Source: a virus | Lineage: Duplodnaviria > Caudoviricetes | Length of the DNA: 46,416 nucleotides | Direction: 5' to 3' (one strand) | Virus record (IMG/VR): IMGVR_UViG_3300020042_004802 | Location: 1 to 46,416 of that record | In this document: piece after piece, positions 15,301 to 40,145 of the stretch | Position numbering within the stretch: position 1 is the first letter of the stretch | How the letters are laid out: every line of letters starts with the position of its first letter | Translations under genes and position numbers: made by a program | Notes under the pieces: generated by a model | What the model saw: the letters and a program-made list of their open reading frames with translations, nothing else | Told to the model about the DNA's origin: nothing | The model's database searches: none

Positions 15301-18300
15301 ATTTAAGCAATTGCGCGCTAAAGAAAATGAGTTATTAAATAACACTACTGCAGAAGGTGTTGTATTGACTACTAGTGATAAGGAAGGATCTAACGTTAAA
15401 CAGTTTGTAGTATTTGATCCTAATCAAGCAAAATCTGCTACAGGTAACAACGGTTCATTCAGCACAGAATCGGACAACATACGCCAACAAAAGGCTAACC
15501 TTTGGGACGGTACTAGATCAGCAAGAAAGGTAGTTGAAGATAAGGCTAAAGAAAAGAAGAACTTAAGATCTTTAGCGCTACCTAAGAATATCTACAAAGA
15601 ATTATTCGAAAGAAACGCGAATATTGCGGATGCATTAAGAGATGCCGGGATGGAAGAAACATTCTATATGCTTTACAATAAAGCAGGAGCGACTCCATAT
15701 GCTACTCGTAAATTTGGCGAGGCTCAATTAGAAATCTTTGGCAAGTTAAGTAAGGCTGAAAAGAATTACTTAAATGACATTGCTCAATTAAGACGTGTAA
15801 TTGCTGTTGATACTAACTTTGAAAACAGAATTGCAGACCAGAAAAAGAATGGATTAAAAGAAGGAGAGAAAGCTCTTGAAATGCCTAAGCATCCTAAGTT
15901 TAATGAATACGGTACTGGTGCCGAAATCGATAATAATAAAAGTGTTGCGCAAAAAGAGTTAGATAAACTTAAACAACACTTGGGCGATGAAGCATTCAAC
16001 AAAATTAATGATCGGGCTAATAAGTTATTTGGTGCATTTTCTGATATTCTTAAGTATAAATATGATAATGGGATGATTACCAAGGAGACTTATGATCTAT
16101 ATAAAGATTATGAGTATATCCCTCGTCAATTCTTGTTCGATATTGATTTAGAGGATATCCCTGCTACTGCATTTAATACTAGAGGAGTTACAATTACTAA
16201 AGAAGAACTTGCTAAGATCGGTCGTGGTAGCGATGACTTTGCAGAGGTAGATACTGAAAAGATGTTGAAGATGGCTATGATTGCCGCTCAGCATCGTGTG
16301 TTTACTAATCGCGCTATTCAGAATATGGCAAAGGAGCTGGGGGCAATAAGTGCTTCCGGAGGGAAACTTACTTGGTTAAAACCAGCTAACATTACTCAAT
16401 TAAAGAAAGGTGTTGATGCTTTAGAGAAAGATGGATCTCCTAAGATCGAAGGTGCTGATGATGGATTTAGAAATATGTTCTATAAGAAAGATGGCAAAAG
16501 ATTTGCTGTTCAACTTAAAGAGGCATACGCTAAAGAATTCTATGATGAGCAATTATATGATACAGCTAATGCTTGGTATAAGCTTGCAACTAATGTATTA
16601 GGAGCTAAGGTTACCCAGACAATGGCTGTAGGCGCTAACCCATTCTTTGTGTTAAGAAACATCCCTGTCGATATCTTATCTCAAGTATATTACAATAACA
16701 TTTACAGCGGACACGGATTAGGCGTTACGGCTCAGATGGCTAAAGGTTTTGGAAGTACATTTAGTATTATGGCTAAGATGGCTAAAGCTAGTTCTAAGAT
16801 TGGGGACAATTCTGAAATACTTAACTTAATTAAAGAGTATGGAGAAGCTGGAGGCTTGATGACAACTCAGACAGATGATTCTACTTACTTAGGTAAGGTT
16901 GGCGATGTGTTAGGTTATTTAGGTAACGTATCTGAAATAGCGGCTAAATTAGCAGCCTACACTAATGTTAAAAGTGATTTAATTAAATCTTATAAGAAAA
17001 GCAACGGAACAGATCCTGATGCAGATGCATTAAAAAGAATTCAATTGGAGGCAGCTTACAAAGCCAGATCCGCTATGGACTTTAACCGTGGTGGTTTGGC
17101 TACTAAGTTTGGTAATGGTTTCTTGCCTTTCTTTAATATTCAATTCCAAGTAGCTAAGATTTCAGCTAGTTATGTAAAAAATAATAAAGTTAAATTCTTT
17201 AATAAGATCTCTCAATCAATGGGACTTATTGCAGGAGTAACATTATATAATATGCTTGTTGCTGGAGCGGATTGGGAGAATAAAGATCTTAAACGCGACA
17301 AGGAAACAAAGCTTATATTTATGAATCCGTTTGGCAAAAATGCTGATGGTACATTAAGTTATACTGCTATTCAAGTTCCAGCTCCGGTTAAATTCTTCTG
17401 GAACATTGCACAGAATATTGCCGAGACCATTCATTATCAAATGAATGGAATGACGCCTCCTACAGAAGATCGCGATAAGTTAGATGCATTTAGAGCAGAG
17501 TTTAAAAAATACTTGCCTAATTTAAAATCTACCTTAATGCCTCCTACATTTAAGGCTATTTCAGAGTACTTAGATAACGAAGATTATTTCTATGGAAGAA
17601 AGCTTAGTCAAGATCATTTAAAAAATATCTTCTTTTCTCAAGAAGGAGCTGAAAATGAAAACATCTTGACAATGTATAAAGTATTGTTCCAAGGTTTAGA
17701 AAAGAATACTGGATTTGGGCTGTCTCCGGAAAGATTCCAGAAAGCTTCAGAAGCAATTATTACGACTCCAGAGTACAATGCTTTAGTATCTACAATGTAT
17801 GCTGCAGCTGAATGGATGGGAGATAAAGCTTATAATGGAATGTATGGAGAAGGAATTAATCCTAAATTAAAATCTAAGTATTTAACTGGAGATTATTCTA
17901 ATGCAATGGGAGCATTCTTTAAAAGTGGTATTGGTACAATGTTTAAAGCAACCGATGCTAAAAAGAATGAAACTCTTAGTGATTTTGAAAAAGAGCAACA
18001 ATTAAAAGATTTAATCGACTACGAAAACAAGCGTATTAATACAGATAGAATTCAAGTAACGCGCGACATTAAGCGCATTATTAAAGAAGCTAAATCTGAT
18101 AAAATTGATCTTAGATTAGAAGAACAAACGTTCAAGAATTATATCAAAGGATTAGAGACTAGTGATGCAAAAAAATATGCAAGCAGCTACGTTAAGATGT
18201 TAATTGAAAAGGATGGGGTAGAATTAAAAGACAATATCCCTACTTATCTAAACATTTTATACAATGCTACTAGTCCAGAAGCGCAAGCAATTGCTTTGAA

Positions 18301-18466
18301 GAAAGCGTTTGGAGATGCAATTTATTACGATACAATGTTAAGAAAGGATCTAAATAAGGTTGGATTTGAGAATGCTGCCGCAAGAAAAGTTAAAGAAATA
18401 CAAGTTAAGAGTTCCGTAAAAGATACTACTTCCGCTTTACCAGAACTACCAGCAGATTTTAAATAG
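9323..18466 (+). CDS. Giant polyvalent virion/ejection protein: zincin-like metallopeptidase, WCT-motif domain plus LRR-like repeats, ADP-ribosyltransferase-like (ART-PolyVal type) domain, LPD38-like C-terminus
   Basis: 3047 aa. GHEVFH at nt 11618-11635 with downstream AEEF; KWCTGG; repeated LPxLxxI units ~13.6-14.9 kb; VRTPQFKDWFGDW...GEPQVIYHGT...GIFFT...YG...PVFL...FVVFDPNQAKSATGNNGSFS; MDFNRGG...FLPFFN in the C-terminal region. Confidence 0.8.
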   Translation: MADFELPELPSEFLDQPINETQGGIEQIAANIQQSFPAGQKKKPMASSGASGSSVSASNKKKSLQDLFVKDKSKEAEIRKRLGIEEGDIAPKTSVAVSTGITQKPAAKAPSTDFKITKPAVETAMPSDRPTADVVEQTPFVMTKSAGEVNMPAPGRETIASESTGLAPQIPIKKYESPVLSALSEDKVKEIEEQQKRVASAYSVMNFDKAIGQASGTGGELINMLLPRAFKSGGLGIMGSLLSASATALKLFDSAATGIGEGIFKLIGADELIEANDYAKTNAFSGAPATKKLFELGQMSQELSSAQMAAAEVNSGISDKNVGKDPVALLTSPQEGDFMDGMTKLGLSVVQQIPNLLAITATGSVIVPTAILEGGSNLTEEYKKDQDISAADGITATAKGIAAGFIENIFLTDIKALKAAGAAIGEVSFTGAKQQLKKVFEEKGEDGVRDLISRTYGSAIKKALKGSAGESIEEILTEVSNFTIDTIRSGKFDSNKFNESLDKAANAGLIGFATGGVISGPVMMASVEPLTFDQKRKVVEFNKIAADPSLSEEVRKTAQIQANKIVKENADKTTAKYDLLIAMDPKSRKEALTKMTEIRKMEADLEKITDPDLQKSLQDNLDKKKEELNVMQTKQLFKEMQKKAKEQAEKAPTAMQGAEPAQAPTAPLEVDHTQDQSAEPILEGKSKQQVKEIAQFDKALKSIDPKAKLVLVNSEEAFAKELEKFHSPEKARDLAQGSAGTFAANQDGTNPTVIVNTTLADKSTYGHEVFHLAVTSLAAKSPAKFVEMQKKILDVLSKSDSKKLSDFASAYDFSTLTEKGQEQRRAEEFLSELAGRLTSREVRLQRTMLQDIANIIHDFIKLFNIKALNDLADKYLGKYAETEELAKFFEGFAKSMQKGKKIDVSYLDSKPVVLNETQKARLEGLIPGTEAYQEASRLNAIQPTDLTFDPQLNNAAIVDSDADVTRQQLKEGNLTDTPEFKKYQKTVKGLGLDDVWLARALFSEEARGNKLYSYGTKEEIIQKMQDELFEIKAAATESNKYYLTTLYPPYIQSQIDKFTRENAVDLRTQWEMIRDSESSRKQFIDQTAAIQKSDLLANLNYLIGNNDYSVPFQYAIVKDIIGNRYEITDAEAQEVSRKSIKPSQYNTTERSFNTVQPDVAALVYNDYGNKLANAGEAYQYASLNKPKVELEYSELKTYIFKESSTGEGTWLKFPQGNNPAAAEALYKIANTSHKYPAKWCTGGSVGTAASQLRDGDFYVFVDGKTGDARIAIRYNGNNKIAELRGLGEGQSITATDDAVLKEVVDTLPDGKSYAKDAKAQEVGTHLLDQLDPDLKYIVSTSPIGDFSKPVPEFEKGILALADKYDIETLLDILETPDRSYGNNNYLLKNIQAGVTNYIEKLSDKFGLGENAIYIAPSNGAREIGKLDTLKIKYHIGSLTVNGEESAFPELIKVSKGGIRLFTSNLVNMPKLKSTQGINFSDFGRLIANELEGSIEISQDYNTNLYQEYYFEAKKLNEILFDEFVLPENSVLDIPSVKNLGKIKNWGGNAQLRIKDGKLIANSLESINASLYVNLKKSTFPDSAIIPNLKSISELEIEGDLDLNENKVVDLPNIESIKYGIYAGGKIDLNLPNLISNDDHQTIISITNNSKLNANKFAGTVLSIRAVDNSEINLNSVKMTDQIVLQKESTLNVNNLEQALKLIRVSQSSKLNADRVQTIGQLEVEKNSHLVLPSLERVLENTFLNGGASLKLPKATTLGLNSTESTKLVGESSLEVPSLLTIPGWLIIDEASKFSADKLTQIGGKIRISDGSNITLPELTKARSVSVTANGVLNAPKLKEVSKLPRLEILDIDLSPYNEGTLIAPLLGYLDPNESITRQQITRLAPNGKPSNLDEKQYATVRTPQFKDWFGDWENDPENASKFVDENGEPQVIYHGTNAEFDQFNLEQKRFGVHDKGIFFTPELSAAKQYGDIQMPVFLSAKNLDFSTMDRNDSFKQLRAKENELLNNTTAEGVVLTTSDKEGSNVKQFVVFDPNQAKSATGNNGSFSTESDNIRQQKANLWDGTRSARKVVEDKAKEKKNLRSLALPKNIYKELFERNANIADALRDAGMEETFYMLYNKAGATPYATRKFGEAQLEIFGKLSKAEKNYLNDIAQLRRVIAVDTNFENRIADQKKNGLKEGEKALEMPKHPKFNEYGTGAEIDNNKSVAQKELDKLKQHLGDEAFNKINDRANKLFGAFSDILKYKYDNGMITKETYDLYKDYEYIPRQFLFDIDLEDIPATAFNTRGVTITKEELAKIGRGSDDFAEVDTEKMLKMAMIAAQHRVFTNRAIQNMAKELGAISASGGKLTWLKPANITQLKKGVDALEKDGSPKIEGADDGFRNMFYKKDGKRFAVQLKEAYAKEFYDEQLYDTANAWYKLATNVLGAKVTQTMAVGANPFFVLRNIPVDILSQVYYNNIYSGHGLGVTAQMAKGFGSTFSIMAKMAKASSKIGDNSEILNLIKEYGEAGGLMTTQTDDSTYLGKVGDVLGYLGNVSEIAAKLAAYTNVKSDLIKSYKKSNGTDPDADALKRIQLEAAYKARSAMDFNRGGLATKFGNGFLPFFNIQFQVAKISASYVKNNKVKFFNKISQSMGLIAGVTLYNMLVAGADWENKDLKRDKETKLIFMNPFGKNADGTLSYTAIQVPAPVKFFWNIAQNIAETIHYQMNGMTPPTEDRDKLDAFRAEFKKYLPNLKSTLMPPTFKAISEYLDNEDYFYGRKLSQDHLKNIFFSQEGAENENILTMYKVLFQGLEKNTGFGLSPERFQKASEAIITTPEYNALVSTMYAAAEWMGDKAYNGMYGEGINPKLKSKYLTGDYSNAMGAFFKSGIGTMFKATDAKKNETLSDFEKEQQLKDLIDYENKRINTDRIQVTRDIKRIIKEAKSDKIDLRLEEQTFKNYIKGLETSDAKKYASSYVKMLIEKDGVELKDNIPTYLNILYNATSPEAQAIALKKAFGDAIYYDTMLRKDLNKVGFENAAARKVKEIQVKSSVKDTTSALPELPADFK

Positions 18467-25469: not shown

Positions 25470-25482
25470 ATTTTAAATCTAG

Positions 25483-25575
25483 TAGTCAGAATGGGAATCG
25501 AACCCACACCTCATCTCTTTCGAGTGCTCTAATCCTCAAGGGTCAATTTCCTTATGACCTTTAAGCTACCTGACT
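25483..25575 (-). ncRNA. tRNA-like element lacking an anticodon loop
   Basis: Acceptor AGTCAGG/TCTGACT+A; T arm GTGGG-TTCGATT-CCCAT; D stem GCTT/GAGC with inserted hairpin GGTCA/TGACC; anticodon arm reduced to CTC-GAAA-GAG. Confidence 0.7.
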
Positions 25576-28893: not shown

Positions 28894-29173
28894 TGTCGTA
28901 GTCGTACTTGAGTAAGAAAAGGTTTATGATATTCTCATCCATATAAACGTAGTTGTTGTTGGAGAAACGAATTTCTCCGTCAAGCATTGTCATCTTATAG
29001 TTCTTAATGAACTTGATGAAATCCCCAAGGATTAAGTTTGGATTCGATAGCTTTGAATTAATCAGAGCCTGTCCTTTTTCGCCGTGAACATAGCCACGAT
29101 GATACGCTCCTCGTAAGGAAATCTTAACTTCCTCAAGGATGTCTTCTAGTGTGTCTTCTAGTACGTCTTTCAT
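28886..29173 (-). CDS. Hypothetical protein
   Basis: 95 aa, ATGA-coupled to the upstream gene. Confidence 0.55.
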   Translation of the reverse strand: MKDVLEDTLEDILEEVKISLRGAYHRGYVHGEKGQALINSKLSNPNLILGDFIKFIKNYKMTMLDGEIRFSNNNYVYMDENIINLFLLKYDYDND

Positions 29174-29667
29174 TGTTTGGTTGGGTTATAGTATTGTAAA
29201 TTTGTTCTGTTAGGTCTTTCTCCCCGAAGCATCATAGCTAAGTGGGTCTCTTGTACATTGTAATAAATACTTGCCAACTTTATAGATTCATAAATTTGAC
29301 TGGTTAATAAATCTATTACTGGTGTTGTTTTATATAATTTATTATCAATAGCGTGTTTTATATTTTCCTTGCGAGTATTCCATTCTAAGTTATCGACTCT
29401 ATTATTAGTTTTAATTCCATCAATATGGTTTACTTCTTCTTTGTTATCAGGGTTTGGAATGAATGCCAATGCAACGGCTCTATGAATAGAAATTGCCTTA
29501 AATTTACAATAGCTCCATAAAGCAACTGACAAATAGCCTTTAACTGGACTAGATTTCAGAACTCTTTCTTTCCTACATCCAACACCTTTTAATCTTTTTA
29601 TCCTTCCAAGGTTAGATACCTGATATAACCCCTTATACCCTTCAATATCTTTCCAAATTTCTTCCAT
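29170..29667 (-). CDS. NUMOD4-HNH homing endonuclease
   Basis: EIWKDIEGYKGLYQVSNLGRIK; HRAVALAFIPNP...VNHIDGIKTNNRVDNLEW. Confidence 0.9.
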   Translation of the reverse strand: MEEIWKDIEGYKGLYQVSNLGRIKRLKGVGCRKERVLKSSPVKGYLSVALWSYCKFKAISIHRAVALAFIPNPDNKEEVNHIDGIKTNNRVDNLEWNTRKENIKHAIDNKLYKTTPVIDLLTSQIYESIKLASIYYNVQETHLAMMLRGERPNRTNLQYYNPTKQ

Positions 29668-31856: not shown

Positions 31857-32402
31857 TTAAAAGTTGGTTTTGTATTTAAGAGAGGTATAGTTTTTGCATT
31901 TACCATTCAGCATTCTACTTAAATATGGGGCGCTTATTGAGTAGGCTAAACTAGCCTGTCTTATAGATTCATATACTTCTCCATTTAAATAATTAATTAC
32001 CTGCTTAGATTTTGCGATACCAATTCTCTGTCTATGTAAGTCTGTAAATACCAATGGCTTCCTTAGTCCAATTTTCCACGAATGTTTAATGTTTTCGTGA
32101 CCTGTATTCCATTCTAAATTCGAGATGTAATTATTAATCTTTATGCCATCAATATGGTTTACCTGTTTCTTTTTATCAGGATTCGGAATGAATTCTATAG
32201 CAACAATACGATGAACTTTTAGTGTTTTAATTTTTCCTAACTTATATAGATTCACTTTTAAATATCCTTTATCATTAACTATGTTTTTTAATATTAAAAC
32301 TCGTTCATTGCCGTAGTGGTCTATTAAACTTTTTATTCGACCATAGGAACTTACTTTATATAGTCCCTCATAACCTGTTATGTCTTTCCAAATCTCTTGC
32401 AT
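31857..32402 (-). CDS. NUMOD4-HNH homing endonuclease
   Basis: EIWKDITGYEGLYKVSSYGRIKS; HRIVAIEFIPNP...VNHIDGIKINNYISNLEW. Confidence 0.9.
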   Translation of the reverse strand: MQEIWKDITGYEGLYKVSSYGRIKSLIDHYGNERVLILKNIVNDKGYLKVNLYKLGKIKTLKVHRIVAIEFIPNPDKKKQVNHIDGIKINNYISNLEWNTGHENIKHSWKIGLRKPLVFTDLHRQRIGIAKSKQVINYLNGEVYESIRQASLAYSISAPYLSRMLNGKCKNYTSLKYKTNF

Positions 32403-32533: not shown

Positions 32534-33178
32534 TTAATAATCACTTGGTATATTAATTTCACTTATTTTTTTTGATTGTGGAATTGTTGCGGTAGAGTCG
32601 ATAGGTATCTCGTCTTCCCATACGCGATGACCTAGGTAGCGTTCTGGGTCTTTCCTATACTTCACTTCTCTAGTAGCTATGTAATTAGGTAGCGCTAAAA
32701 ATATAGCATCTATCTCTTTCTCTTTTAACTTAACCCATTTAGCCTTAGTCTTGTCCTTACCTACCTTCTTATTGTAGATATTCCAAAAATCTTCAAAGCG
32801 CTCAATAGATTTATTATTTTCTTTATTATTATATTCTTTATTATGTGCCCCTGTAGGGACAGAGGTATGCCCTTCTACGGACATAGGGGTATGCCCCTGT
32901 AGGGACATAGGGTATGTAAGTCTAATCTCCCTAGATTCTATCTCATTATTAGCCTTTCTTTTGATTACCGACTTAATAAGATTCATTGATTCTAGTTTGT
33001 ATATACACTTTCTTATACCTGATACTCCTATCCCAAGTGCATTCCCCAAGTAAGCATTACTAGCAAAGCAGTATCCTTCCTTAGCTGACAAACTATTTAA
33101 TAATCCCATCAGATTTTTTTCTGATGCGGTCAAATCTGTTCGCGCCAATAAATCATATGGGATTGTTATAAAATTCAT
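32534..33178 (-). CDS. Phage replication initiator (N-terminal HTH, lambda O-like organisation)
   Basis: LTASEKNL...GYCFASNAYL N-domain; internal DNA repeats and Asn/Lys-rich linker; FEDFWNIYNKKVGK...PERYL C-domain; upstream of dnaB. Confidence 0.8.
   Translation of the reverse strand: MNFITIPYDLLARTDLTASEKNLMGLLNSLSAKEGYCFASNAYLGNALGIGVSGIRKCIYKLESMNLIKSVIKRKANNEIESREIRLTYPMSLQGHTPMSVEGHTSVPTGAHNKEYNNKENNKSIERFEDFWNIYNKKVGKDKTKAKWVKLKEKEIDAIFLALPNYIATREVKYRKDPERYLGHRVWEDEIPIDSTATIPQSKKISEINIPSDY
32812..32907. repeat. Iteron array plus AT-rich tract inside the initiator gene (probable origin)
   Basis: TGCCCCTGTAGGGACA (32846), TGCCCTTCTACGGACA (32868), TGCCCCTGTAGGGACA (32892), next to an AT-rich run at ~32812-32844. 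Confidence 0.75.
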
Positions 33179-33393
33179 ATTGCTCTTCTTAACTTCTCGT
33201 TTACTTCGTTCAAATCATTTACCATATCCTGAACAATATCTACTAACTTCTTGAATGATTCCATCTCAGGTCGCGCATATTTGAATAGAGCAGAGTAATC
33301 TTTTATGTCTTGCTCAAGGTTAACTTTGCGCAGGTTAAGTACCGCTCGATGACACATTATCTCTAGTTCATCGTTAGCTTGTTGTGTGTTCAT
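33175..33393 (-). CDS. Small helical hypothetical protein
   Basis: 72 aa, ATGA-coupled to the initiator gene. Confidence 0.6.
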   Translation of the reverse strand: MNTQQANDELEIMCHRAVLNLRKVNLEQDIKDYSALFKYARPEMESFKKLVDIVQDMVNDLNEVNEKLRRAI

Positions 33394-33408
33394 AAGTACA
33401 AAAATAAA

Positions 33409-33511
33409 CCCCCAAACCTTGTTGCGCAGGTAAGGGGGCGGTTCAAGTTGCCTTGAATACCGAATGAGATGACCGCAACTTCACCTCATCCGATTGTACG
33501 ATTCAAATGTA
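33409..33511 (-). promoter_or_regulatory. Promoter -7 element plus kissing-loop RNA leader B
   Basis: TACATTTG (33504-33511); hairpin 33461-33492 with loop AGTTGCGG; middle hairpin 33442-33457; hairpin 33409-33438 with loop GCGCAACA, then a U-rich tract. Confidence 0.65.
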
Positions 33512-33526
33512 CAACATTAGTTTTAA

Positions 33527-33799
33527 TTAGTCAACAAATGTAAGATTATTTATATTCATTGTCGGAATACCAATAGTCCTAAACATCTCTTTTGGATGCG
33601 TAAAGATTAGCGTCCTAAAGTCGGGTGTCCCCTCAAGGAATACACCAAAATCGCTGATTATCCTACTACCTAATCTATACTCTACTAGGTATTTTGCCCC
33701 TTGGATTAGTTTACTTGTGTCTACTGCTGGATTATACACCTCATAGATGTCTTTCTTTGCTCCTGATGATGTTAAATATGTTCCTACTACTTTTCTCAT
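33527..33799 (-). CDS. Hypothetical protein
   Basis: 90 aa in a packed array. Confidence 0.55.
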   Translation of the reverse strand: MRKVVGTYLTSSGAKKDIYEVYNPAVDTSKLIQGAKYLVEYRLGSRIISDFGVFLEGTPDFRTLIFTHPKEMFRTIGIPTMNINNLTFVD

Positions 33800-33801
33800 A
33801 A

Positions 33802-34038
33802 CTATTTTTTATTTAAAATGATTTCAAAATTTCCTTGTGTTACTACTACCTTCCCATCAACTGATGTGAAAGTTACTCCGTGACCATAAACCCTAAAGGT
33901 ATTTGCACAATAGGTGCTGAACTCGGTCTTAATTGTGTACTTACTTGTTGGTCGCGATAAATACAATGTGATTGCCACACCAAATAAACAAAACACGCCA
34001 ACAAGAATTACGATTAACTCGCCTGATAACTTTCTCAT
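33802..34038 (-). CDS. Hypothetical membrane-anchored protein
   Basis: N-terminal hydrophobic helix. Confidence 0.55.
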   Translation of the reverse strand: MRKLSGELIVILVGVFCLFGVAITLYLSRPTSKYTIKTEFSTYCANTFRVYGHGVTFTSVDGKVVVTQGNFEIILNKK

Positions 34039-34349
34039 ATCTCTACCTCAATTTGTTTAACGATTGTGTTTCCCTTGTAAGTAGTTACTTCTTGATAGTC
34101 AGTAACGCGAGACGTTAGTACGCCATCAGGTGATTCGATAATATGAACCCATACCTTGCGCGGGCGTTTTGATAGATATATTCTATCTACACTAGTTCCC
34201 GCCCCGACTTTATCTTTCCAACCAATGGCATATCCATCTCTAACTGATATGATTTCAAATGGGCTTTGATTTGTATCGGCAATATAAGCGTCATATAATC
34301 CAATCTGATATAACGCGTAATCGAACTCAATTTTTTCTTGATTTTTCAT
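34035..34349 (-). CDS. Hypothetical protein
   Basis: Start placed at MKNQEK after an A-rich leader. Confidence 0.5.
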   Translation of the reverse strand: MKNQEKIEFDYALYQIGLYDAYIADTNQSPFEIISVRDGYAIGWKDKVGAGTSVDRIYLSKRPRKVWVHIIESPDGVLTSRVTDYQEVTTYKGNTIVKQIEVEI

Positions 34350-34442
34350 TTCTTTGTTTGGTTTTATAAAACGATTAAATAATAAGCAAAACATATTGAT
34401 GCGATAATTATAACGACCTCTATTAGGTCGACGTAGGTGTTC

Positions 34443-34715
34443 TTAGAATTCATCTTTAGTTCGGATAGTTAGTTTAACTGGACACGATGCATTGTAGTCT
34501 GATGGATGCCCATCGGTTGTATTATATACGCTTACTGATACATCATCCTCATATATTAAATGAATGTCGAACACAACACCATTGAACTCAAAGGTATGCC
34601 ACTCGTCTAGTTCTAGATAATCTATTAATATCTCGCAGTCAACCTTGTTGACACGAGCATATACACACATCCTCTGCTTGAAAGGATTAATTATCACGTT
34701 GAAGTGTGTTGCCAT
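34443..34715 (-). CDS. Hypothetical protein
   Basis: 90 aa. Confidence 0.55.
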   Translation of the reverse strand: MATHFNVIINPFKQRMCVYARVNKVDCEILIDYLELDEWHTFEFNGVVFDIHLIYEDDVSVSVYNTTDGHPSDYNASCPVKLTIRTKDEF

Positions 34716-34926
34716 TTGCTATGATTTGTAATAGTTTAAGATTCTCTGAGTTAGCCTTAGAGATGTTGTCCTCCAAGGCTTTGTGCAGTTCATACAATTC
34801 GTTAATCAACACGTCGACTAGGTCGTCCGTGTACAACTTTGCTAAGTGTTCCATCTCCCGATATTCCACTGGTTCAATGCGACAATCTAATATCGCATTG
34901 ATGATTTTTTCTCGTTGGTTTCCCAT
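34687..34926 (-). CDS. Hypothetical protein
   Basis: Start placed at MGNQREK. Confidence 0.5.
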   Translation of the reverse strand: MGNQREKIINAILDCRIEPVEYREMEHLAKLYTDDLVDVLINELYELHKALEDNISKANSENLKLLQIIANGNTLQRDN

Positions 34927-34985
34927 TACTTGTTGTTGTTTAATAGCCACATTAGGTGGGCTAAGTCTTCATGATTCATATGTAT

Positions 34986-35153
34986 TTAGTCTAGTGCGCT
35001 TACAAGCGCTTGGATGTCATTAATTAAAGTAAACTCTTCGTAGAACTCTCCATTAGTTCCGCCATCGGACGTGTACATTCTATCCGCTAGTTTCGTGCGT
35101 AATTCTTCTAGCAGTTTGTCTGCTAGGGCTTTGGTTGCTTCGTGCTTTGTCAT
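34986..35153 (-). CDS. Small hypothetical protein (55 aa, MTKHEATKALADK...), not in ORF track
   Basis: Translated by hand; ATGA overlap with the upstream gene, which also starts MTKHEA. Confidence 0.55.
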   Translation of the reverse strand: MTKHEATKALADKLLEELRTKLADRMYTSDGGTNGEFYEEFTLINDIQALVSALD

Positions 35154-35419
35154 CTTGAAAAGTTAAAGTTATTGTAATTCCTATCCTTGAATTTATCTGA
35201 ATAATAAATTTCATTTCCTTGGTATCCACCTATTGAAATCTGAGACGCATATTCAATATGGTCTTCCCTTTCAATACAAGAATCGTAAACCTCAAATCCA
35301 TTGCTAGTCTCGCCTATAAAAATTCCTAAACTCCACTGCATTGAATCATTCCATCTATGAGATATTGTATCCCCGATTTTAACATTATCTAATCTATTAA
35401 TTGCTTCGTGCTTGGTCAT
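35150..35419 (-). CDS. Hypothetical protein
   Basis: 89 aa. Confidence 0.55.
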   Translation of the reverse strand: MTKHEAINRLDNVKIGDTISHRWNDSMQWSLGIFIGETSNGFEVYDSCIEREDHIEYASQISIGGYQGNEIYYSDKFKDRNYNNFNFSR

Positions 35420-35426
35420 AAGATTG

Positions 35427-35639
35427 TTATTCAGTTATTAATATTTTTAGTTTTGTTAGCATCTCTTCTCCGCCATCGAATACGCCATTATAGTGTATCC
35501 AATATCTTAGTAATTCAAAGTCCCTTAGTTTCATATTTTTAATGAAATGTTCCTCGTAGGTTTTTTCGGGAAAGTTAATGGCATCTATTTCTGCCATACT
35601 ATTTGCTAGGTATTGCTTAAGTTTATCTGATTGTGTCAT
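35427..35639 (-). CDS. Hypothetical protein
   Basis: 70 aa. Confidence 0.55.
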   Translation of the reverse strand: MTQSDKLKQYLANSMAEIDAINFPEKTYEEHFIKNMKLRDFELLRYWIHYNGVFDGGEEMLTKLKILITE

Positions 35640-35643
35640 AATA

Positions 35644-35841
35644 TTATATTTCTGAGTCGTCGTTTAAAAACATTATTGATATTAATTCTGAGTTATTCTC
35701 TTCGTCGTACAAGTCCTCCTCGACGTGCCATACACGCTCTTCGTTTGAGTCTCTGTCAGTACGATAGAAAACCTCTACCTTAGATAAATCGTGGGACTTA
35801 TCTAGTTCCAATAGATAGGTCAATAGTTCGTTCGCTCTCAT
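35644..35841 (-). CDS. Small acidic hypothetical protein
   Basis: Start at MRANELL, TAATG-coupled to the upstream gene. Confidence 0.55.
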   Translation of the reverse strand: MRANELLTYLLELDKSHDLSKVEVFYRTDRDSNEERVWHVEEDLYDEENNSELISIMFLNDDSEI

Positions 35842-36104
35842 TATTTTTGCTCGGTTAGAATGTTGCTCGTGGAATTTGTCGTTGCCACGGTGATTTGATT
35901 CTTGGTGGCGTAGCGTACTACCCAATCCATTTGCTTCTCGGAAATTTCACCCATCCAAAAAAAGATGTCCATAATATTTCTGATAGCGGGCGCTTCTTTA
36001 TCGCCAGTCTTGGCGTACATACGTTCCTTGCAAAAGTCTCTGATTGCACTTGCGTAGCGTGAGCGCAATTCATTGTTGGTTTCTAAAATTTCTCTGACAT
36101 TCAT
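35841..36104 (-). CDS. Early hypothetical protein
   Basis: Start at MNVREIL, 7 nt after pseudoknot copy 1. Confidence 0.6.
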   Translation of the reverse strand: MNVREILETNNELRSRYASAIRDFCKERMYAKTGDKEAPAIRNIMDIFFWMGEISEKQMDWVVRYATKNQITVATTNSTSNILTEQK

Positions 36105-36111
36105 AAGATTA

Positions 36112-36137
36112 TGCGGTTGACCTATACACCGCAAGGT
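36112..36137 (-). ncRNA. Pre-start pseudoknot motif, copy 1
   Basis: ACCT-TGCGGT-GTAT-AGGT-CA-ACCGCA. Confidence 0.7.
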
Positions 36138-36143
36138 GATATG

Positions 36144-36344
36144 TTAATTATTTTTTATGTTTTCTATTTGACTCATTAAATACTCGATTGCTTGGTAGTT
36201 AATCTCATCCTCTGATAATTCAAAGGCGCGACCCGATAGCATTTCTATGTACAATTTGCCCCTCACTATGGAGGTAATAAACCCATTTTCTTGGGCGATT
36301 AAGTCTAGATTTTTTTGTGCGTAACGCAATGTTGAAAGTTCCAT
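36144..36344 (-). CDS. Early hypothetical protein
   Basis: 66 aa, preceded by pseudoknot copy 2. Confidence 0.6.
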   Translation of the reverse strand: MELSTLRYAQKNLDLIAQENGFITSIVRGKLYIEMLSGRAFELSEDEINYQAIEYLMSQIENIKNN

Positions 36345-36355
36345 AAGATTTGTTA

Positions 36356-36379
36356 TCGGTTACCTATACACCGAAAGGT
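36356..36379 (-). ncRNA. Pre-start pseudoknot motif, copy 2
   Basis: ACCT-T-TCGGT-GTAT-AGGT-A-ACCGA. Confidence 0.7.
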
Positions 36380-36388
36380 TATATGTTA

Positions 36389-36664
36389 TTAGTTATTTAA
36401 TGACTCTTTGTAAGCATTGAATATGGCTAAAAACTCAGGTAGACAATCCTTTGCCGAACGACCTTTCAGTCCGTAGTACCTTTTGATGTCCGTAAATTTG
36501 ATGCCTCTACAAGTCATCCCCGAAGCCATAATTCCTAGGTTAAACTTGTGAACCGCTAACTGATATGCGAAATAGTCTATCTTACCATTTGCTGAAGATA
36601 CACTTGGTGTGCGTAAAGCGCCTAATCTAGCTTGCTCAACTGCTTGTTCGAATTGTGATTTCAT
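36389..36664 (-). CDS. Early hypothetical protein
   Basis: 91 aa, preceded by pseudoknot copy 3. Confidence 0.65.
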   Translation of the reverse strand: MKSQFEQAVEQARLGALRTPSVSSANGKIDYFAYQLAVHKFNLGIMASGMTCRGIKFTDIKRYYGLKGRSAKDCLPEFLAIFNAYKESLNN

Positions 36665-36677
36665 AATAGATAATATA

Positions 36678-36701
36678 ACGATTGCCTATACATCGTGAGG
36701 T
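36678..36701 (-). ncRNA. Pre-start pseudoknot motif, copy 3
   Basis: ACCT-C-ACGAT-GTAT-AGGC-A-ATCGT, with compensatory changes in stem 2. Confidence 0.7.
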
Positions 36702-36722
36702 CAAAATGCTGATAGTGGAATT

Positions 36723-36845
36723 TTATAGTAATGGTAATAAGAATGCACATAGGGATGCGATTACTAATGCCGTGATTAATTCGCCTTTGTCTTGCGCCGC
36801 CTCTTCTCCTAGGAAGAATACAACTATCTTATTGAATGTCTTCAT
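36723..36845 (-). CDS. Small membrane peptide (40 aa, MKTFNKIVVFFLGEEAAQDKGELITALVIASLCAFLLPLL), not in ORF track
   Basis: Translated by hand; preceded by pseudoknot copy 4. Confidence 0.6.
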   Translation of the reverse strand: MKTFNKIVVFFLGEEAAQDKGELITALVIASLCAFLLPLL

Positions 36846-36853
36846 TGTAATAA

Positions 36854-36878
36854 GCGGTTGACCTATACACCGCAAGGT
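36854..36878 (-). ncRNA. Pre-start pseudoknot motif, copy 4
   Basis: ACCT-T-GCGGT-GTAT-AGGT-CA-ACCGC. Confidence 0.7.
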
Positions 36879-36900
36879 TGTTGTGAGATTAGATAATATA

Positions 36901-37833
36901 TTAAGAGGCTAAGATTACATCAAACAAGCGCTCATCAATAGTCTTTTGTTGGTCGAAAGTCTTTTGCAACTTGTTATGTAACAACTCGTTGAAAGCATTG
37001 TATACTATCCACTTGTTAGGCTTAGTATTTAACACCTTGGTCTCGCGTTGTACCACATCTAAGATAAAGCGAGCGTTCAAGCTAGGTGCGGGATTCTTAT
37101 CAGATGATTCGTACTTGATAAGGCTTAACTTCTTATTAACGTCTTGAATGTACTTCTCTACGTTTAAGACACGCGCCTCAGCTAGGATGTCGAACTTCTT
37201 CTTAAGGCTAAAGAATTCGTTATCCATAAAGTTTTCTACTAGTTCGCCTAGCTTAGGTAGTACAATCTCAGCAATTGACCCCGTGTGCTTAACGCTAAAT
37301 CCAATCTCTGTTTGTGCGATACATAAACCATTGTCACATACCTTGCGATACATACCGAATGACCCACTAGTCTTGTTAGACCCATCGTAGCTATTAGTAA
37401 ATCGTAGCATAGGGAATAGGATATCTTGGTCACCCTTAACCTCAATCTTGTAACGGTCATCCGCTAGGACATAGTCAACTGCAAAGGAGCGATTGTCGCG
37501 ATTGATAGAGCGTGACTTGTAGTAGATGTCCGCATCTATTAGCTTGCGCTCGGCTTCTAGGAAGAACACCTCATTAGGTAGGTGACCGTATGATTTAGAT
37601 ACCACATTAACTAGTGTGCCTCCGCAAATGATACCTTGCTCTAGACCCTTTCTTGTAGGCATATCTAATAGGTCAGACATTTGTACAATTTTGTTGTCAA
37701 CAAATACGTCATCTTGACGCGATTTTGCTAGTAAGTCATCTACTGACTTGGTAGTTCTGAAGTTCATTTTGCCATTGCCATTAGAGTTTAACAATGAATT
37801 GATTTGACGATTTGCTGTTTTTGAAACGTTCAT
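36901..37833 (-). CDS. DUF932/DUF945-like early protein
   Basis: VVSKSYGHLPN...FTNSYDGS...GMYRKVCDNGL...KHT...WIVYNAFNE pattern. Confidence 0.8.
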   Translation of the reverse strand: MNVSKTANRQINSLLNSNGNGKMNFRTTKSVDDLLAKSRQDDVFVDNKIVQMSDLLDMPTRKGLEQGIICGGTLVNVVSKSYGHLPNEVFFLEAERKLIDADIYYKSRSINRDNRSFAVDYVLADDRYKIEVKGDQDILFPMLRFTNSYDGSNKTSGSFGMYRKVCDNGLCIAQTEIGFSVKHTGSIAEIVLPKLGELVENFMDNEFFSLKKKFDILAEARVLNVEKYIQDVNKKLSLIKYESSDKNPAPSLNARFILDVVQRETKVLNTKPNKWIVYNAFNELLHNKLQKTFDQQKTIDERLFDVILAS

Positions 37834-37844
37834 AATAGTGTGTG

Positions 37845-37869
37845 TTCGGTTACCTAGCCACCGAAAGGA
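37845..37869 (-). ncRNA. Pre-start pseudoknot motif, copy 5
   Basis: TCCT-TTCGGT-GGCT-AGG-TA-ACCGAA. Confidence 0.65.
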
Positions 37870-37878
37870 TAAGTTTTT

Positions 37879-37928
37879 GTGTGAGACCCCCGAAGGGGTT
37901 TCGGCTATTCAAGCCTCATCAGTCACAC
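37879..37928 (-). ncRNA. Type I hammerhead ribozyme
   Basis: GTGTGA-CTGATGA-GGCT-TGAAT-AGCC-GAA-ACCCC-TTCG-GGGGT-C-TCACAC: complete catalytic core and three perfect stems; predicted cut after GUC, between 37885 and 37884. Confidence 0.92.
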
Positions 37929-37938
37929 TATATTAATA

Positions 37939-38172
37939 TTATTCTACTATTCTATAGAATTCTCTTTGCTTCATCAATGCCTTACCAAATGATGAATTGA
38001 CCGAATGGAATGATATTAAAACTTTACTTTGAGGATAGGCACATAGTAAAGGATTGTTTCCTTGCCAATAGATTTTATTATCCATACAATTAAACTTCTC
38101 GGCATAAGCGTGTAATGCTAGATACTTTGAACTAGCTTCGATAACGTGTAGGTTGTTTGTTACAAATTTCAT
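37939..38172 (-). CDS. First early hypothetical protein
   Basis: 77 aa, between the tRNA-like element and the hammerhead. Confidence 0.55.
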   Translation of the reverse strand: MKFVTNNLHVIEASSKYLALHAYAEKFNCMDNKIYWQGNNPLLCAYPQSKVLISFHSVNSSFGKALMKQREFYRIVE

Positions 38173-38189
38173 AATATAGTTGTTTAAGT

Positions 38190-38260
38190 TGGCGATTGGT
38201 AAGGGATTCGAACCCTACTCACACGGAACTAAGTCTTAGTGTGGTGACCTGCAACCAATC
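38190..38260 (-). ncRNA. Aberrant tRNA-like element with encoded CCA
   Basis: Acceptor GATTGGT/ACCAATC+G+CCA; T arm AGGG-TTCGAAT-CCCT; no recognisable D arm; central stem CACAC/GTGTG with a 14-nt loop. Confidence 0.7.
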
Positions 38261-38395
38261 GGTATGCGCAATCTTCGATGAGTATTAGCGATTTGCCTAG
38301 GCTATCCTTGGGCTATTTACCGACACTTTACTGCAACCTATGACCCTTAGGTGGTGGGGATTTTTTAACCCGCTTGACTGCGGATGATACTCAAG

Positions 38396-38408
38396 ATTTC
38401 AAAGAACA
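38396..38408 (-). promoter_or_regulatory. BoxA-like antitermination element
   Basis: Minus strand TGTTCTTTGAAAT, ~150 nt downstream of the early promoter. Confidence 0.5.
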
Positions 38409-38560
38409 TTTTAAGCATACTTTCGTCCGTTCGGTAGGGGCTATATGACAAACCTAGGTAGCTAGGTACAAGTACTTATGTTTAGTGTCTAGCCCGTTCT
38501 TACTGAGCCTATCCTTTGCACCACTATGGCAGTGGCATCCGTTTGTCTCGTTCGACATTA

Positions 38561-38591
38561 CAAAGGTATACTAAACTTTTAGCTTTACAAA
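38561..38591 (-). promoter_or_regulatory. Major early promoter (Bacteroidota sigma70)
   Basis: Minus strand TTTG-19 nt-TACCTTTG, consensus match at the head of the minus-strand gene block. Confidence 0.85.
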
Positions 38592-38734
38592 TTATCTAAT
38601 CTGTAATAACCTAGAAACACGACGAAATGGCGATATGTGTCGACGAAATCCCCAATTGTGTCGACGAACAGACCATATTTAGCGATATGTATCAAATTTT
38701 ACCCTTATCTAATCCTTGACATATACTGCAACCG

Positions 38735-38812
38735 AGCGCGCGCGTCACGTCACGCGTACACGCACACGCATACACACACGCGTAGGCGCACGTCACACGC
38801 GTACACGCGTAT
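38735..38812. repeat. Alternating purine-pyrimidine tract (CG/CA/CACGCGTA units)
   Basis: GCGCGCGCGTCACGTCACGCGTACACGCACACGCATACACACACGCGTAGGCGCACGTCACACGCGTACACGCGTATA. Confidence 0.75.
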
Positions 38813-39364
38813 AGCATTTTTTTTGACATCAAAATTACCCCGATTTTGCGTTTAAGGCATTATCTCGCATAGGGCTTATAGAATGGACATTTAAACAAGA
38901 AAATGTCTTAAATCAAAGATTTGACCCCTTAAAACGAATGCTAGTAAAATGGGGTGTTTGTTCTTGGGGGTGATGTGTGGCGGATAATTCCCTTAGGACA
39001 GATACGCCCTTCATTTAATCCTTTGGGCATATATTCCCCTACATTGTTTCCCTTTAGTGCAACACTATTGCATTTATTCCTTAGGGCAGATGACAATCGG
39101 AAAGATAATACCGATGACATAGGACATTGTACCAATGGGATACATTGGAAATTGTTTATTGTACCACATATATACATTGACCCGATTTTTGGATTTCGGA
39201 TTTGGGAAAGTGACCCCACCCCATCAGCAAAAGTCGTTTGTCGTTCTGCGTTGCGACCCGCTGTATAATATATATAACCATAAACCGACAACTACGCGGT
39301 GCAAAAATTGACAATATGATTATATCTATCTATCTTTACCTTTACAAACCAAACAAACATTTTA

Positions 39365-40009
39365 ATGCTTACTTACGATATCAAGAAATCGCCACCAAAT
39401 ACCGTCGTGGTTGAAGTTGGTTCTTCAATGGATGACACTGTCCAGTTCGGTAATTTAAAGCTCCATATAGACCCTGAATTTAATCCTACGCAGTATGCTA
39501 GAATCTATGGTCGTGTAATAGCGGTGCCAGACGGGAAGGCTTACAACGAAGAGGCTATTGAAATAGAAAAAGACGTAAAGGTAGGAGATATTATATACTT
39601 TCATTACTTAACTACATCCGATGAAAACAACTGTATCTACGGCAACTATTATAAAGTACCTTATTATTGGATATTTTGTGTCGTTAGGAGTGGTAGTATA
39701 TTACCTATTGGTGGCTGGACTTTATGTGAAACGGTGGTTGAGGAACAATTTAATACTGTTGAAGTTGGCGGTCAAAAAATTGAAGCTATAACATCGGCAT
39801 CTGGTCTAGTAATTGGCATCAACAAGAAGCCTTCAGATAAGTTTGCAAGACTGTCTCATATTGGCAAACCATTAGTTGGTGCAGATGAATTAAAAGTTAG
39901 TCAAGGCTCGCTTGTTTTCTTAAACAAAAACTCAAACTTTAAAAATACCGTCGAAGGAAAAGAGTACTATACAGTACGTCAAAGGGATATTTTATGTTCT
40001 AAAGACTAG
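39365..40009 (+). CDS. Tandem two-domain GroES-like co-chaperonin
   Basis: Domain 1 ...GRVIAVP...VKVGDIIYF; domain 2 PIGGWTL...TSASGLVI...VEGKEYYTVRQRDIL. Confidence 0.75.
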   Translation: MLTYDIKKSPPNTVVVEVGSSMDDTVQFGNLKLHIDPEFNPTQYARIYGRVIAVPDGKAYNEEAIEIEKDVKVGDIIYFHYLTTSDENNCIYGNYYKVPYYWIFCVVRSGSILPIGGWTLCETVVEEQFNTVEVGGQKIEAITSASGLVIGINKKPSDKFARLSHIGKPLVGADELKVSQGSLVFLNKNSNFKNTVEGKEYYTVRQRDILCSKD

Positions 40010-40017
40010 ACACCCTC

Positions 40018-40145
40018 TGCTACCACAGGGGCAGGGGGGGTATGCTACTACAGGGGCAGGGGGTATGCTACCACAGTAGCAGGGGTATGCTACTACAGGG
40101 GCACATAATATATAATATAATAAATAAGATTAATATATACTATTT
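40018..40145. repeat. Four iteron-like 16-mers plus AT-rich tract
   Basis: TGCTACCACAGGGGCA (40018), TGCTACTACAGGGGCA (40043), TGCTACCACAGTAGCA (40066), TGCTACTACAGGGGCA (40088), with G-run-TA spacers, then a nearly pure AT run. Confidence 0.8.

Follow-up and report, generated by a model that had tools for sequence, protein, structure and literature searches.

The complete 46.4-kb linear virus record IMGVR_UViG_3300020042_004802 (Duplodnaviria; Caudoviricetes), whose 46,416 nucleotides (nt) are called the window here, carries five copies of a small RNA element near the head of its minus-strand gene arm, each shortly before a start codon. The element is 24–26 nt long, is very probably a selected RNA fold, and is likely to adopt the full pseudoknot. 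Its function is proposed tentatively: it may be a stimulatory initiation element that loads ribosomes and sets the start in hosts whose ribosomes are blind to the Shine-Dalgarno (SD) sequence. As a cis-acting leader pseudoknot it is of a known kind; the covariation of loop 1 with stem 2 is new, and the family is absent from Rfam.

All five copies have the core order CCU-Y-stem2a-L2-AGG-L3-stem2b. Stem 1 consists of three base pairs (bp), CCU/AGG, loop 1 of a single pyrimidine (Y), and stem 2 of 5–6 bp, and the flanks are A/U-rich. Loop 2 (L2) has 2–4 nt, with a 4-nt linker in the core, and loop 3 (L3) has 2–3 nt, mostly with A at its end. The 5' strand of stem 2 in the core has 5 nt, the final one being U. 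The five copies are as follows.

37846–37868, minus strand: copy 1, stem 2 UCGGU/ACCGA, linker GGCU, 12 nt before the start of the DUF932 gene.
36854–36878 (core 36877–36854), minus strand: copy 2, stem 2 GCGGU/ACCGC, 8 nt before a 40-codon open reading frame (ORF).
36678–36701 (core 36700–36678), minus strand: copy 3, loop-1 C, stem 2 ACGAU/AUCGU, 13 nt before a 91-codon ORF.
36356–36379 (core 36378–36356), minus strand: copy 4, stem 2 UCGGU/ACCGA, 11 nt before a 66-codon ORF.
36113–36137 (core 36136–36113), minus strand: copy 5, stem 2 GCGGU/ACCGC, 8 nt before an 87-codon ORF.

A preliminary description of this DNA had placed five minus-strand copies here, and the sequence, a pseudoknot scan and a covariance model agree with it. 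Its GTAT linker is found in four of the five, the exception being copy 1. Of its distances to the ATG, 8, 13 and 11 nt hold, while 11 and 7 nt become 12 and 8 nt with a 5-bp stem 2, because a sixth stem-2 pair had been counted in two copies. The pseudoknot scan, free of sequence constraints and run on both window strands, returned the five copies and three unrelated places; a short direct repeat at 40042–40110 (plus strand), which separates the GroES-like gene from the ORF after it, is the source of one such background match. A 16-letter pattern is exact in four copies, and with two mismatches it matches the window 25 times in total against 15.8 expected. The covariance model, which the preliminary description had called for, separates the five copies (23.9–42.7 bits) from the rest of the window (next site 10.9 bits); it was built from 147 cores, including three window copies, and this model (R1) is rough because its alignment (A2) misplaces the gap where loop 3 has 2 nt. 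With pseudoknots excluded by the folding program, stem 2 is the minimum free energy hairpin in four of the five copies. Both forms of loop 1 (C and U) are present in the window. Short contigs from three freshwater RNA libraries (two studies) lie over copies 1, 4 and 5; strand, ends and RNA source are not readable from the contigs, which are not used as evidence.

The pairing-based definition was passed by 342 distinct copies, and pair counts in this set come from copies chosen for pairing and so lean towards structure. In searches that left four pairs of stem 2 free, these were formed, from the inside outward, in 99, 98, 99 and 79 of 100 contexts, and the inner three showed 3–5 pair types each. 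A perfect 5-bp stem 2b, not requested by the pattern, follows 2–3 nt downstream in 89 of the 117 distinct viral contexts listed. More diverged stems, some of 6 bp, were found in model searches, again 8–10 nt from the ATG. When stem 2b alone was free, Watson-Crick pairing was complete in 180 of 226 contexts, and at most two pairs formed in 27; where just one of the inner four pairs deviated, it was G-U or U-G in 17 cases, C-A in one and C-U in one. This bias for G-U over A-C indicates that the sense RNA strand folds; on the 32 distinct stem types alone the comparison is 3 versus 2, which is not informative. A short-linker variant, with a 2-nt loop 2, pairs in stem 2 in 12 of 49 contexts; about four are true copies by eye (ATG at 8–10 nt), and the rest are chance.

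Stem 1, when left free, was CCU/AGG in 104 of 141 contexts and is thus nearly invariant; among the other 37, four retain three pairs with an ATG at 8–13 nt. The outer C-G pair is replaced by U-A in three loci (L505, L630 and L675, two of them related) and by U-G in a fourth (L632), with the ATG at 7–10 nt. A scan for changed outer bases gave 65 contexts, five of them with stem 2, and all three with an ATG at 7–8 nt keep the pair (U-A twice, U-G once). Further single variants of stem 1 are CUU/GAG, CCU/GGG and GGU/GCC. The fourth pair, A-U, is frequently disrupted (A.C in 34 of 104), so that stem 1 is best read as 3 bp. Covariation backs stem 2 strongly and stem 1 weakly, in the latter at the outer pair only.

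The base in loop 1 tracks the stem-2 pair that lies beside the junction pair: C accompanies A-U in 134 of 136 cases and U accompanies G-C in 181 of 185 (315 of 321 in total). Counted on distinct stem types, which are not phylogenetically independent, the rule holds in 6 of 6 and 22 of 24 (Fisher p 5e-5). This covariation is the strongest support for the crossing topology and favours a pseudoknot over a hairpin. In H-type pseudoknots, loop 1 occupies the major groove of stem 2; a major-groove base triple, loop-1 C with A-U and U with G-C, is therefore the simple reading and is predicted here. The preliminary description had preferred a folded RNA to a double-stranded DNA operator and had noted that stem 2 covaries, and both views are upheld, the first by the free-stem searches, the loop-1 covariation and the G-U bias, the second by the searches leaving stem 2 free.

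The element is carried by podophages, crAss-like phages, microviruses, prophages and a plasmid, mostly of Bacteroidota. Copies are found, for example, in the microviruses MK496766, MT135418 and MG945294, in the crAss-like phages NC_055868 and OQ198718, which belong to different families, and in the Chryseobacterium plasmid NZ_CP034172. The pattern of the 5' two-thirds alone was met in at least 125 viral loci (about 180 stretches estimated). In GTDB genomes, 122 loci were compared and 96 have stem 2; of these, 87 are labelled Bacteroidota, six carry the names of other phyla and three have no phylum label; of the 26 loci without stem 2, 25 are from other phyla, behaving as chance matches. Strict copies number 1–8 in 36 of 39 viral records, the records having been picked for carrying a copy. 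Five bacterial genomes have 1–4 copies apiece, and the element is therefore not a housekeeping signal. One copy (L139, about 419–450) is flanked on both sides by a direct repeat of about 40 nt, which suggests a recent duplication or insertion at the element. In three phages of 177–187 kb (L269, L281 and L327) the ORF behind a copy is interrupted early by TAG, a pattern that would fit a genetic code in which TAG specifies an amino acid.

The position of the element relative to start codons is narrowly set. An open-frame ATG lies 7–11 nt after stem 2 in 60% of the 342 copies, against 2.9% at random places, and with one copy per downstream cluster it lies at 8–10 nt in 119 of 205. An ATG at 0–5 nt occurs in 20 copies, all of which also have a start at 6–11 nt; three of these second-start frames are short under the standard code. 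An SD tract is absent from all five window spacers. Of 316 copies, 18 have a TAnnTTTG site, which we take to be the Bacteroidota promoter element, 28–52 nt upstream; in control windows the frequency is 13 of 918. The copies in question are therefore in a 5' leader, which speaks against a promoter repeat; the preliminary description had named a transcription start at each copy as the outcome that would make it a DNA promoter, and the promoter-like sites found upstream of some copies are separate from the element.

In the mechanism that we propose, the 30S small ribosomal subunit of the host would bind the conserved 24–26-nt mRNA knot, which would set and boost initiation at the AUG 8–10 nt downstream. 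Protein bS1 would take the A/U-rich 5' flank, and the knot would rest at the mRNA exit side, the usual site of the SD helix. In leaders with an SD-like tract the knot mostly lies upstream of the tract, at varying distances, where it would serve as an upstream enhancer. The stimulatory effect would provide a portable strong start for newly acquired small early genes. A partner supplied by the host is suggested because a six-gene microvirus, crAss-like phages, podophages, prophages and a plasmid all carry the element. The ribosome appears the best candidate because the spacing to the AUG is tight without an SD, relaxed with an SD-like tract, and nearer AUGs are apparently skipped. As described in PMC13000457, Bacteroidia ribosomes are SD-blind, with the anti-SD sequestered, and bS1 stimulates SD-less initiation; in the same source, mRNA density upstream of -3 is unseen in the Bacteroidia ribosome. 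Pseudoknots are named as high-affinity bS1 targets in a review (PMC10931766). A more specific form of the proposal, a structured SD substitute in which a triple-locked pseudoknot of 25 nt docks on the Bacteroidota 30S platform or on bS1 and measures out the start codon, is possible and regarded as doubtful.

Several observations weigh against a start-setting element. Bacteroidia initiation is described as preferring low structure and A at -12/-13 (PMC13000457), the very positions that stem 2 covers, and E. coli S1 is reported to unfold pseudoknots and to bind the folded form poorly (PMC7038950). An SD-like tract follows in 20 copies, where the ATG distance ranges from 11 to 57 nt, and 69 of 294 non-SD 3' flanks are without a start at 6–13 nt. 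Some copies have non-coding settings (L070, L052 and L036, the last with the copy before a hammerhead). One relative (L001) has lost the copy ahead of an intact DUF932 gene. As to the fold, the middle pair of stem 1 was uncompensated in a metagenome scan (none of five matches, all chance-like). Finally, the distance between the upstream stop codon and the knot peaks at 7–10 nt (66 of the 145 clusters that have a stop no more than 60 nt away), and a two-sided ribosome keep-out combined with genome compaction could account for the spacing with no positive contact at all. Stops closer than 6 nt occur in just 6 of 145 clusters, and motif-free neighbour genes often overlap. The knot appears to keep about one ribosome edge away from both neighbouring genes, because the stop is held off by 7–10 nt and the ATG by 7–11 nt. 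In the window, the upstream stop is 9–10 nt ahead of copy 4 and 6–7 nt ahead of copy 5.

Spacing on both sides is also an argument for a different function, in which a compact RNA structure would stand as an obstacle in the decay or processing of the mRNA. Such an obstacle would slow 5'-end-dependent attack by RNase G/Y or 3'-5' trimming, and would sit in a ribosome-free intergenic gap or near new 5' ends made by a promoter, a hammerhead cut or a tRNA-like cut; the 8–10-nt spacers on both sides would be the minimum preventing ribosomal unwinding. A candidate for such a cut stands just upstream of copy 1.

37879–37928, minus strand: type I hammerhead-like ribozyme, fold z = -2.9, RAGATH-1 hammerhead at 23.4 bits (below cut-off).

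Its core has CUGAUGA, GAAA and three stems, letters that match what we take to be the type I hammerhead consensus. The cut is predicted between 37885 and 37884, and copy 1 starts 16 nt after it. One contig from an RNA library runs across this predicted cut, which speaks neither for nor against cleavage. Close variants of this hammerhead lie upstream of copies in L004, L054 and, twice, L069. T-arm hairpins stand just upstream of copies in L001, L004, L032 and L059; they are related to one in the window at 38190–38545 (minus strand), a stretch of about 350 nt without a long ORF on that strand, which ends in a tRNA-like T-arm and closing stem just ahead of the first small gene and is a candidate non-coding RNA or processing signal. 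Rfam and ARAGORN gave no match for this stretch, and its fold is not better than those of shuffles. One copy (L070, 2494–2523, minus strand) lies 4 nt behind the 3' end of a tmRNA and before a tRNA, and another (L052, 2377–2525, plus strand) lies behind a tRNA and near a skipping-rope RNA, with no start codon close.

A decay obstacle is nevertheless unlikely. It draws support from the copies that follow hammerheads and T-arm hairpins or stand beside tmRNA and tRNA genes, from the clusters still 6–12 nt behind a stop, which include 21 of the 50 that have no start close by and 10 of the 12 of SD type, and from the precedent of phage transcripts cut by clustered hammerheads into gene-sized RNAs (PMC3088659). 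Against it, the spacing is tighter on the 3' side (119 of 179 at 8–10 nt) than on the 5' side (56 of 145 at 8–10 nt), and most copies have no ribozyme or T-arm nearby, hammerheads and T-arm hairpins each being upstream neighbours of 5 of 316 copies. RNase J was above cut-off in none of five Bacteroidota genomes (completeness not given) versus 8 of 14 controls, and Bacteroidetes are listed as without RNase J and RNase E in a preprint (10.1101/2021.04.08.439066). A block to a 5'-3' exonuclease is unlikely in hosts that have no RNase J, and an xrRNA-like element was rejected because RNase J, the 5'-3' exoribonuclease that it would block, was not above cut-off in these five genomes.

A translational operator or switch is a still weaker candidate and quite improbable. 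Here the knot, which covers -9 to -33, would block or trap the ribosome once a small ligand or an RNA-binding protein of the host had stabilised it, so as to time or damp early genes in the manner of the rpsO or T4 gene 32 pseudoknots. The cover of the -12/-13 determinants of Bacteroidia initiation (PMC13000457) would suit this role, as would the nearly invariant letters of the loops and stem 1, expected of a binding surface, and pseudoknot operators have precedents (PMC10931766). The downstream genes argue against it. Their ORFs have a median of 93 amino acids (aa) (138 complete ORFs) and fall into 187 protein clusters; of the 107 proteins scanned, 17 had Pfam and 25 PHROG matches, including DUF932, SSB, BspA-type LRR, NADAR and a helicase, and no common family or pathway was found among these 107. 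An autogenous operator was rejected for this reason. No plausible phage regulator is shared across microviruses and crAss-like phages, and a phage-encoded operator protein is unlikely because a six-gene microvirus and crAss-like phages share the element. Its 24–26 nt are also fewer than those of any ligand-binding aptamer known to us.

Less probable again, and rather remote, is a termination insulator or coupling relay, in which the knot would meet a just-stopped ribosome and either block its re-initiation or pass the 30S subunit to the AUG about 40 nt on. The peak in stop-to-knot distance agrees with such a role, and gaps that bear the motif have a mode of 40–49 nt, whereas motif-free gaps in the same loci often overlap; re-initiation is described as governed by structures just behind stop codons (PMC7518266). 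On the other hand, 61 copies with a start at 6–13 nt lie more than 60 nt from any upstream ORF end, many of them behind a promoter-like site, the NC_055868 copy stands ahead of the gene that opens a divergent operon, and insulators need stability rather than invariant loops.

Gene order differs among the window and four relatives (L001–L004), in a manner like the gene exchange at PeSL repeats. Homology among the relatives stops at the copy behind DUF932, with a different gene next in each, and a related contig diverges just 3' of copy 2. The copies appear to mark shuffling points, yet a given gene can apparently do without one. Recombination between copies likely shuffles the intervening genes as a by-product. 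These breaks are what recommends a DNA-level repeat, such as a promoter, operator or recombination site framing swappable gene cassettes in the T4-type PeSL manner, which is very improbable in view of the sense-strand bias for G-U over A-C, the three-base covariation, the many genomes with single copies and the separate promoter-like sites upstream.

Known RNA families do not account for the element. At the gathering level, Rfam found just one tRNA in the window, and the motif stayed unnamed when positions 33000–39400 were scanned at E up to 10, and likewise in scans of a 66-nt stretch, of 20 loci at the gathering level and of 16 short loci at E up to 10. The preliminary description had not recognised a named family, and in these scans no Rfam family fits, RAGATH-1 having matched only the neighbouring hammerhead, below cut-off. 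The pemK RNA (RF02913) gave no match, nor did the DUF805 model, which was covered in the all-family scans. No published description of the motif was found in a search that covered material other than the supplement of PMC5737381 and two supplementary files of PMC10690425; a word search of seven supplementary files of PMC10690425 did not find the motif.

DUF805b RNA (RF02914) is similarly a small, A/U-rich two-stem leader element before varied genes in Bacteroidota (four over-cut-off members). It has a G-rich first strand, a GAAAA linker, a long third loop with GAGUA, a length of about 35 nt and a distance of 19–26 nt from the ATG, whereas the present motif is without the G-rich first strand, the long GAGUA loop and the start distance of about 20 nt. 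It matched no copy, the best window score being 10.8 bits elsewhere against a cut-off of 35.6. COG2908 RNA (RF02939) shares 14 letters between its consensus positions 9–23 and the 5' half of copy 4 (11.7 bits). These letters form a CC/GG tetraloop hairpin within a closing stem, which is absent from the motif. The family was rejected at 7.7–11.7 bits in the window (model positions 8–23) and 15 bits at best (L620), against a cut-off of 58.7 over 45 positions. In viral contigs with COG2908 look-alikes a further hairpin comes next, and both stem 2b and a fixed ATG are absent. Such RNAs with the further hairpin occur on many viral contigs (L388, L396, L440, L456 and others), several of 4–7 kb, and this setting suggests that the COG2908 family is viral.

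The rpsO (uS15), T4 gene 32 and bS1-binding pseudoknots are leader knots that engage the 30S subunit or a protein beside the start codon (PMC10931766, PMC10690425). The rpsO and T4 gene 32 operators serve one cognate gene, respond to its own product and act in SD-using hosts, unlike the present motif, which stands before many unrelated genes, on unrelated elements, at the usual SD site. The PeSL of T4-type phages are likewise repeated small regulatory elements between non-essential small genes and show modular shuffling (PMC2839356). They are described there as a sigma70 promoter with a terminator stem-loop, whereas the motif is a covarying two-stem RNA with its promoter elsewhere and no regular U tract: at least seven T in the next 10 nt were found in just 14 of 152 start-linked clusters. 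The ribosome termination structure (RTS) likewise stands just behind a stop codon, but is presented as a general stability feature with no sequence family (PMC7518266), and many copies of the motif have no nearby upstream ORF end. The preQ1-I riboswitch aptamer (RF00522) is another very small H-type pseudoknot in 5' leaders; it was rejected for want of an Rfam match, downstream queuosine genes and a long A-rich loop 3, and mostly of an SD to sequester.

In the window, the plus strand encodes from about 39.4 kb a terminase, a portal and a GroES-like gene, and the minus strand the replication genes and numerous small genes. The copies stand ahead of DUF932 and four small ORFs without a family.

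36901–37833, minus strand: DUF932 gene, 310 aa, behind copy 1 (Pfam PF06067, E 1e-13).
36723–36845, minus strand: 40-codon ORF behind copy 2, no family; look-alike at a different slot in L001.
36389–36664, minus strand: 91-codon ORF behind copy 3, no family; look-alike right after DUF932 in L004.
36144–36344, minus strand: 66-codon ORF behind copy 4, no family.
35841–36104, minus strand: 87-codon ORF behind copy 5, no family; look-alike right after DUF932 in L001.

The closest annotated relatives of the DUF932 protein are Flavobacterium psychrophilum phage proteins (53% identity). From these relatives and the SD-less spacers we infer a Bacteroidota host and an early-gene role for the window copies.

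Other features of the window were also observed. A G+C-rich alternating purine-pyrimidine tract with inverted symmetry (38737–38817) lies near the divergence of the two gene arms, where GC skew also flips sign; it is a possible origin, packaging or regulatory site. A tRNA-like gene with an irregular anticodon arm (25482–25575, minus strand) scored 35.1 bits with Rfam and received no assignment from ARAGORN. A 3047-aa protein (9323–18466, plus strand) has an ART-PolyVal ADP-ribosyltransferase domain, matches LPD38 weakly and resembles the polyvalent proteins that are injected into the bacterial host. Two similar ORFs (29170–29667 and 31857–32402, minus strand), presumably HNH homing-endonuclease genes by their likeness, flank helicase and nuclease genes.

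Start choice without SD pairing is only partly understood in Bacteroidota, where A at -3, -6, -12 and -13, low structure and bS1 are involved. A 25-nt fold at a fixed distance, with natural compensatory and triple-swap variants, would offer a small, direct way of asking if structure can stand in for the SD helix as a ruler. If the structured SD substitute is real, it would amount to a minimal bacterial internal ribosome entry module that microviruses, crAss-like phages, podophages, prophages and plasmids have in common through horizontal exchange, and would let newly acquired genes be translated at once. If the element is an enhancer, it could serve as an expression part for Bacteroides and Flavobacterium and would explain how gut and aquatic phages plug in small genes. 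If it is a decay block or an insulator, it would reveal that a phylum without RNase J has a previously unrecognised layer of control over its mRNA. In all these cases it represents an uncatalogued RNA family missed by Rfam scans.

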